Source: a virus (taxonomy: Duplodnaviria; Heunggongvirae; Uroviricota; Caudoviricetes). From it: 10,089 nt of DNA. Where the stretch lies: the IMG/VR virus record IMGVR_UViG_2675903357_000009. One strand, given 5' to 3'. The notes below the pieces were generated by a model, which did no database searches, had not been told where the DNA came from, and worked only from the letters and a program-made list of their open reading frames with translations. Positions 200 to 827 of the stretch are shown one piece after another; the first letter of the stretch is position 1; every line of letters starts with the position of its first letter. The position numbers and the translations under genes are program-made.

Positions 200-392
200 G
201 GTTCTTTCCACCATCTGAAAAATAATTCTTTAAAATACCTGACATGTAATACAGAAAAAACACAAAACCATACCTTAAATAAAAACCTGATTATCAAGCA
301 GATATGCATGGATAAACTACAAGACGAGATATAAACCACCCTGCATTTAAATAAACAATAAACAACATCAGAAAAATAATTCTGCTCTATGG

Positions 393-419
393 TTTACATT
401 CAAAAATATCATTTATACT
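393..419 (+). promoter_or_regulatory. Candidate sigma70 promoter for the 460-795 ORF (-35 TTTACA, -10 TATACT)
   Basis: TTTACA at 393-398 and TATACT at 414-419 (15-bp spacer, so suboptimal), about 40 bp upstream of an AAGGAA Shine-Dalgarno and the ATG at 460. Confidence 0.35.
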
Positions 420-459
420 TTTCAGAACATCACCAGCAAGGCATAAACAAGGAAACTAA

Positions 460-795
460 ATGAAGTGGATTGTGATTGATACAGTTATCCAGCCATCATG
501 CGGAATATCTTTTTCAGTCATATGGAGTAAAATAAAATTAATAATCTGGTATCAATCGGATGCTTTCTTACCTCCTGAAAGTATATTTACACTGACTCAC
601 ACAGGCATCATGCTCAATAACAAAGTGCTACCTGTAACCATTTACAACGTAGTACCATTCAATAAAACATTCTGGAATTCAATCAAAAATAGCCAGGAAT
701 GCCCTACAAATACAGATAACGTATTGAATGAATGCTTTAATAACCGTTGCACTCTGCAAATATGTCCTTATGGACTAAAACAACAAAGTCCATAA
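460..795 (+). CDS. Hypothetical protein (111 aa), AT-rich moron-like ORF with a Cys-rich C-terminus, opposite in orientation to the phage late genes
   Basis: ATG at 460 preceded by AAGGAA with 5-nt spacing. A 111-codon open frame in a ~32% GC segment, where chance ORFs are rare. No recognisable family by eye. Confidence 0.5.
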
Positions 796-827
796 GGAGT
801 TTACTCACATCTGACAAAATCAATATA

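Follow-up and report, generated by a model that had tools for sequence, protein, structure and literature searches.

The closest described relatives of the gene analysed here are the anti-adaptors IraL, IraM and RssC, which act on the adaptor RssB. IraL co-purifies with RssB and, in two-hybrid assays, interacts with the RssB N-terminal domain (PMC4045071). Log-phase sigma-S falls in CFT073 and Shigella sonnei when iraL is deleted, with a halving of the sigma-S half-life, and rises in K-12 when iraL is introduced with its native promoter; the gene is overrepresented among uropathogenic E. coli and Shigella (PMC4045071). [quoted passage not shown] The crystal structure of the IraM-RssB complex (8TWD) shows a PmrD-like beta-barrel that bridges both RssB domains and occludes the alpha4-beta5-alpha5 face of RssB, which is the sigma-S binding site (PMC10844676). 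The third member, RssC, is an IraL- and IraM-like anti-adaptor according to the literature, but it occurs in Salmonella only and its reported identity to iraL is ~49%.

Our analysis of the window, by which we mean the whole 10,089-nt stretch of DNA, indicates that its AT-rich block is almost certainly the already characterised gene iraL, in its Shigella allele, and not a new gene. The block and its immediate flanks comprise the following features:

201-827, iraL cassette, 627 bp, 32% GC, delimited by alignment of an iraL-carrying prophage (L004) with an iraL-less one (L003)
393-419, plus strand, iraL promoter: -35 TTTACA (393-398), 15-nt spacer, -10 TATACT (414-419); both hexamers identical to CFT073
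427, plus strand, transcription start followed by a 33-nt 5' UTR (427-459), placed through homology with the start mapped in CFT073
449-453, plus strand, Shine-Dalgarno AAGGA, 6 nt before the ATG, as read from the letters
460-795, plus strand, coding sequence of iraL (111 aa and a stop codon) in its Shigella allele, S74, assigned from CFT073 IraL (110/111), NF007393 and 8twd
830-851, G+C-rich hairpin common to the convergent iraL and STnc100 transcripts, with a T-tract on the minus strand only (829-821)
821-1010, minus strand, STnc100 sRNA gene, copy 1, bordering the cassette on the right (Rfam RF02076, 132.4 bits, gathering score 47)
73-199, minus strand, 5' part of a DUF1737 gene, left flank of the cassette, truncated by IS600 at 72/73 (Pfam PF08410, E = 1.5e-15)

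In the alignment of the two prophages homology ends at window 200 and restarts at 828. The left edge of the cassette is therefore at ~201, abutting the DUF1737 start codon (199-197; the start assigned by PGAP in L004 equals window 199, and the gene precedes the holin in intact relatives), and the right edge lies inside the T-tract of the STnc100 terminator. An earlier interpretation made from the letters and open reading frames (the sequence-only reading) had delimited the block as 240-827; its right edge is retained here, whereas the left one moves outwards. The AT-richness that it described is evident, since 240-827 has 32.5% GC and 215-827 has 32.0%, compared with 52.1% (73-214) and 50.3% (828-1300) in the flanks and 48.7% in the whole window. 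The ORF list and gene calls also agreed with the proposed 111-codon ORF at 460-795, which starts with ATG and runs on the plus strand, opposite to the Q, tRNA and lysis genes. ORFs of at least 111 codons appeared in 7 of 5000 mononucleotide shuffles of 201-827 and in 27 of 5000 first-order Markov shuffles. The product, described as rich in Cys and Trp, contains 5 Cys and 4 Trp among its 111 residues. Furthermore, the statement that only one of the two paralogous regions carries the gene was correct, since tblastn found no second copy of iraL within the window and the second Q-tRNA-sRNA region (3831-6839) is without it.

The encoded protein is identical to CFT073 IraL (locus C_RS06710, in the potB-island prophage) at 110 of 111 residues (99.1%), the sole change being L74S, and the coding sequences share 334 of 336 nt, while identity to K-12 IraM is 58.6% at the amino acid level and 68.8% at the nucleotide level. 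Across window 70-1100 six bases differ from CFT073 (212, 269, 426, 457, 680, which causes L74S, and 690). In addition, the product matched the NCBIfam profile NF007393 "anti-adapter protein IraM" with 162 bits (cutoff 121; E = 4.7e-48), its residues 1-110 aligning with positions 1-113 of the 114 in the model, and, over residues 1-78 and without gaps, chain A of PDB entry 8twd, the crystallised IraM core (E = 6.3e-31, a match of sequence only). Differences between iraL and K-12 iraM are distributed 27/18/55 over codon positions 1/2/3, and this concentration on the third position is a coding signature, as expected under purifying selection. Conservation of the ORF and a coding signature, two of the properties by which the sequence-only reading had proposed that it be judged, were both found. 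Moreover, the iraL subgroup of Hryckowian et al. (2014; PMC4045071) is defined by a coding identity of at least 95% and an upstream identity of at least 96% to CFT073. The window gene lies above both values, with the coding identity given above and 131 of 133 nt in the -100 to +33 region (327-459), where the two differences fall at 426 (position -1) and 457 (in the UTR).

The same reading could not place the product in any family, but the evidence above assigns it to the IraM/IraL/RssC group of RssB anti-adaptors. The difficulty is explained by two facts: no Pfam-A model matches the product (hmmscan returned no meaningful family with an E limit of 0.01 or, when relaxed, of 10), and PHROGs still lists IraL (phrog_4407) under "unknown function", years after its characterisation in 2014. 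In E. coli genomes, PGAP gives this ORF the name "anti-adapter protein IraM". With no Pfam-A model, this PHROGs label and the NCBI name "IraM", sequence-only readers and phage-centred pipelines are expected to go on reporting an unplaced moron. In this regard, the window iraL adds nothing new on mechanism and its value lies mainly in annotation.

The promoter that had been proposed at 393-419 is well supported by the work on CFT073. There, 5'-RACE in log-phase lysogen cells gave the 5' end ACATCACCAGCAAGGCATAAACAAGGAAACCA, from which the promoter was assigned (PMC4045071), and both hexamers are the same in the window. The published end agrees with 31 of the 32 bases at window 427-458, which places the start at 427, 7 nt past TATACT and within 1 nt of the start near 426 that had been predicted. 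The "+33" clone boundary of the same study also agrees with an ATG at 460, and the Shine-Dalgarno had rightly been called good. Our consensus scan, which admitted spacers of 16-18 nt, did not call this promoter because its spacer, at 15 nt, falls outside that range; this length is also non-optimal. As IraL has been reported to rise in a fur mutant, we also searched for a Fur box upstream of iraL, and the best match (11/19) scored below the shuffle mean, so that a Fur box was rejected. We infer that the window copy is expressed and active.

The surroundings of the cassette are far more damaged than the gene itself, and they consist of two lambdoid prophage fragments and three IS600 copies or ends:

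1-72, IS600 right end, which removes the copy-1 lysis genes; it recurs at 3581-3652 and, inverted, at 10018-10089, and is recognised from the IS600 annotation in Shigella plasmids
2515-3652, plus strand, 5'-truncated IS600, linking the two prophage fragments and interrupting the copy-1 Q at 2514
10018-10089, inverted IS600 end; the window ends inside this IS600 copy
Copy 1, minus strand: truncated Q (2062-2463), tRNAs (1707-1959), 117-aa phrog_2873 ORF, DUF3927, STnc100 (821-1010) and DUF1737 (199-73), with iraL on the plus strand
Copy 2, minus strand: DUF968, RusA, Q (6018-6839), 65-aa ORF, DNA methyltransferase, three tRNAs (4097-4346), STnc100 (3831-4020), then IS600
3831-4020, minus strand, STnc100 of copy 2, in the paralogous region without iraL (Rfam RF02076, 123.6 bits)

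The middle IS600 lacks ~124 bp at its 5' end, and the lysis genes are absent from both copies. Positions 1-2513 of the window are 99.9-100% identical to chromosomes encoding the same IraL protein, and since the Q gene is intact in the sampled S. sonnei-type chromosomes, the window holds an additional IS600-associated rearrangement. The exact 111-aa protein is named from Shigella sonnei and in a multi-species Shigella entry, and occurs on at least 999 Shigella contigs. From its sequence, the window is most likely an IS600-shredded prophage remnant from Shigella. Compared with CFT073, iraL is found here with the same neighbours (DUF3927, STnc100, iraL, DUF1737, in a lambdoid prophage) and with a promoter and 5' UTR that are 98.5% identical, and the differences are the L74S allele, the fragmentation of the prophage by IS600 and the loss of the downstream holin and lysis genes.

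Such decay raises the possibility that iraL is a silent or inactivated passenger, disabled for example by L74S or by the changes at -1 and in the UTR. IS600 indeed cuts both DUF1737 (at 72/73) and Q (at 2514), and L74S adjoins residue 75, a position that in IraM contacts the RssB C-terminal domain. However, the ORF, the Shine-Dalgarno and both promoter hexamers are intact, and the exact allele is the one found on the at least 999 Shigella contigs. All sampled S. sonnei-type chromosomes carry it, and S. sonnei is one of the organisms in which the iraL deletion lowers log-phase sigma-S (PMC4045071), so that we consider a silent passenger very unlikely. The retention of an intact promoter, 5' UTR and ORF after loss of the lysis genes suggests instead that the host kept iraL for its own use, and the locus illustrates domestication, with cargo gene and promoter left intact and the surrounding prophage destroyed by IS600.

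The name "IraM" used by PGAP and NCBIfam could also be taken literally, which would make the gene an orthologue of K-12 IraM, that is, a Mg2+-starvation/PhoP-induced anti-adaptor and not the constitutive log-phase IraL. The two proteins share the family NF007393, the core fold as judged from sequence, all five contacts to the RssB N-terminal domain, four C-terminal Cys and the ICPYG motif. In favour of the literal reading, a PhoP-box-like repeat, TGTTTA-N5-TATTTA, is present at 348-364 on the minus strand with 11 of 12 positions matching. Against this, the identity is 58.6% to IraM versus 99.1% to IraL, and in the published survey iraL and iraM matches never overlap. The gene falls outside a K-12-type iraM subgroup (at least 95% identity to K-12 iraM, location beside e14) by both its protein and nucleotide (68.8%) identity and its context, the order Q, tRNAs, DUF3927, iraL, DUF1737 being that of CFT073 and not that of the e14-side iraM of K-12. 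Shuffling this AT-rich DNA reaches the PhoP-box-like score in 5% of cases, and the repeat is in reverse orientation, at -79 to -63 relative to the iraL start. It is probably due to chance, and we mention it as a weak lead, notable since iraM is PhoP-regulated. An IraM orthologue is therefore highly improbable, and the identification as IraL is maintained.

Conservation of the contact residues is in agreement with what has been published for IraL. When the IraM-RssB interface (PMC10844676) was transferred through an IraL/IraM alignment, all five Cluster I contacts with the RssB N-terminal domain were identical in IraL (I4, I6, W22, K26, I42), compared with three of five Cluster II contacts with the C-terminal domain (T13S and L75I being changed) and two of four Cluster III contacts with the linker (H63N and I64V); P66 is retained. 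Contacts kept on the N-terminal side and partly altered towards the C-terminal domain and linker fit the published binding of IraL to the RssB N-terminal domain only. A PmrD-like connector that shields another phosphorylated response regulator, such as PmrA, and does not act on RssB is hardly conceivable: the IraM fold resembles PmrD alone in the PDB (PMC10844676) and a precomputed Pfam table gives PF11183 (PmrD) for IraL, but direct hmmscan against Pfam-A (E up to 10) did not reproduce that entry, a PDB sequence search (E up to 1) returned no PmrD match, the RssB-contact residues are conserved and binding to RssB is experimentally direct (PMC4045071).

As an IraL protein, the product of the window copy is expected, from the experiments in CFT073 and S. 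sonnei, to bind RssB and to stabilise sigma-S against ClpXP. The gene is almost certainly lambdoid-prophage cargo that was acquired horizontally, with a sigma-70-type promoter of its own that makes its transcription independent of phage late transcription and opposite to it. The N-terminal PmrD-like beta-barrel (~residues 1-78) would bind the response-regulator-type adaptor RssB, and RssB thus bound would be unable to pass sigma-S (RpoS) to the ClpXP protease. As a result, sigma-S could be longer-lived and accumulate even in exponential growth, and the general stress response would be pre-armed. In this way IraL alters the setting of the general stress response in a pathogen, with sigma-S held up during growth. 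The C-terminal tail was removed for the IraM crystal structure and described by its authors as less conserved and flexible (PMC10844676). We observed that in this part of IraL (residues 81-111, window 700-795) Cys 81, 92, 97 and 102 and the motifs QECP and ICPYG do not vary between IraL, IraM and the Stx-phage variant described below; a role in metal binding or as disulfides is conceivable.

Morons of lambdoid phages, in the sense of Hendrix and Juhala, such as bor and lom of lambda and stx of Stx phages, are cargo genes of deviant composition with their own promoter, which are expressed from the prophage and benefit the host. iraL resembles them as an extra cargo of deviant composition (32% vs 50-52% GC in the flanks) with its own promoter, whose hexamers are those of CFT073 and which directs independent transcription on the strand opposite to Q, the tRNAs and DUF1737. 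We also count a host-beneficial function expressed from the prophage as present. Unlike the classical morons, iraL has no terminator of its own, the sole hairpin (830-851) belonging to the STnc100 flank, and its slot exchanges alternative cargo with no empty site seen. The STnc100 terminator and the DUF1737 start are conserved as flanks, but they are adjacent in none of the three relatives compared: the prophage of E. coli ATCC 11775 (L003), an O157 prophage (L002) and Stx2c phage 2851 (L007). L003 is an intact, iraL-less relative of copy 2, in which the STnc100 terminator is separated from DUF1737 by 716 bp of 50.6% GC with a second STnc100 copy inside, and because of this replacement an empty site was rejected as the iraL-less condition. 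The same interval carries a SASA-family esterase gene in L002, and in L007 the order is tRNAs, stx2AB, STnc100 and an IraL-like ORF on the opposite strand.

The cassette is thus swapped for other DNA in iraL-less relatives, and the slot is a cargo-exchange site beside the stx position and not the result of insertion into an otherwise empty junction. The cargo slot of lambdoid phages invoked by the sequence-only reading exists as a variable Q-to-holin interval, whereas the simple insertion does not hold, since relatives carry other DNA at this place. Similarly, iraL varied across related prophages, as it had expected, but no flank-adjacent empty site was found among L002, L003 and L007. Of the "classic moron layout", deviant composition and own promoter are retained, while an own terminator and an empty site in the compared relatives were not seen, and moron is a fair functional label for iraL although not a strict fit. 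The layout itself had been read well, because the block is a real AT-rich, autonomously transcribed cargo gene on the opposite strand; both gene and slot were already known.

The comparison with copy 2 on which the reading was built needs correction. It had described the two late regions as collinear from R to the next late gene, but the copies adjacent to the cassette share only a 224-bp block (828-1051 and 3839-4061, 96% identity). This block is the sRNA gene STnc100 (RF02076, 132 and 124 bits) and, not being a protein gene, cannot be R. Beyond it, IS600 cuts copy 2 at 181 bp past STnc100, and the adjoining 186 bp (3653-3838) are unrelated filler that matches L003 3995-4181. A late-gene homologue had also been proposed in copy 2 from 3763 down. 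That copy 2 retains a homologue of the gene following iraL can be ruled out, since the 3763 region has nothing in common with copy 1 beyond the 10-nt string CATCTGAAAA, and its 33-codon ORF, 106 nt (3653-3758) away from the IS600 end, belongs to the unrelated family phrog_23557 and is not homologous to the DUF1737 gene.

Between the tRNA-Arg and STnc100, copy 1 contains a stretch that copy 2 lacks (1052-1693, 33-40% GC), located where stx2 is found in Stx2 phages. It includes the DUF3927 gene (1076-1207), which belongs to phrog_1470 ([quoted passage not shown]), and the 117-aa ORF (1243-1596, minus strand), assigned to phrog_2873 with E = 4e-70 and not annotated by PGAP. The tRNA sets differ as well: copy 1 has an Arg(UCU) tRNA and a tRNA with a CAU anticodon (Ile2-type; Met according to ARAGORN, Ile according to PGAP), and copy 2 has an additional Arg(UCG).

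Downstream of iraL, the terminator scan called the hairpin at 830-851 on the minus strand only. No plus-strand terminator was found for iraL, where the RNA fold gives a 9-bp stem without a U-tract after it. The distance from the iraL stop codon to the sRNA 3' end is 26 nt, and 8 nt separate the convergent 3' ends in Stx2c phage 2851. If the shared hairpin terminates the sRNA strand only, read-through from iraL would be antisense to STnc100, and this could tie the stabilisation of sigma-S to prophage sRNA activity.

Of 5426 complete E. coli genomes, 1430 carry the iraL block (at least 80% coverage), and iraL was also found in four sequenced Escherichia phages with 97% protein identity. Additionally, an IraL-like variant occurs in 41 Stx-phage records, most of them without annotation of the ORF, and in 236 of the 5426 E. 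coli genomes, chiefly those of O157 and other STEC. Its location in phage 2851 is as follows:

FM180578.1 24233-24562 (L007 5001-5327), plus strand, IraL-like ORF, with convergent STnc100 at L007 5335-5546

This protein has 72.7% identity to IraL and retains every residue that contacts the RssB N-terminal domain. Like iraL, the ORF of Stx2c/Stx2a phages is convergent with STnc100 and lies in the Q-to-holin interval on the strand opposite to the late genes, but its upstream region is different and it follows stx2B and STnc100 directly. iraL is missing from EHEC strains whose log-phase sigma-S is high (PMC4045071), which makes the Stx-phage variant a candidate explanation for their phenotype; our literature search found no experimental study of this ORF. 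It remains an unlikely proposal that iraL and the convergent STnc100 are a conserved functional pair and not chance neighbours, with antisense coupling through read-through and with the Stx2 IraL-like gene behind EHEC sigma-S.

Lastly, a hok/sok type I toxin-antitoxin locus was detected in the distal part of the window (9003-9178 and ~8853-9065, both on the minus strand; sok RF01794, 112 bits), where related prophages annotate hokD.
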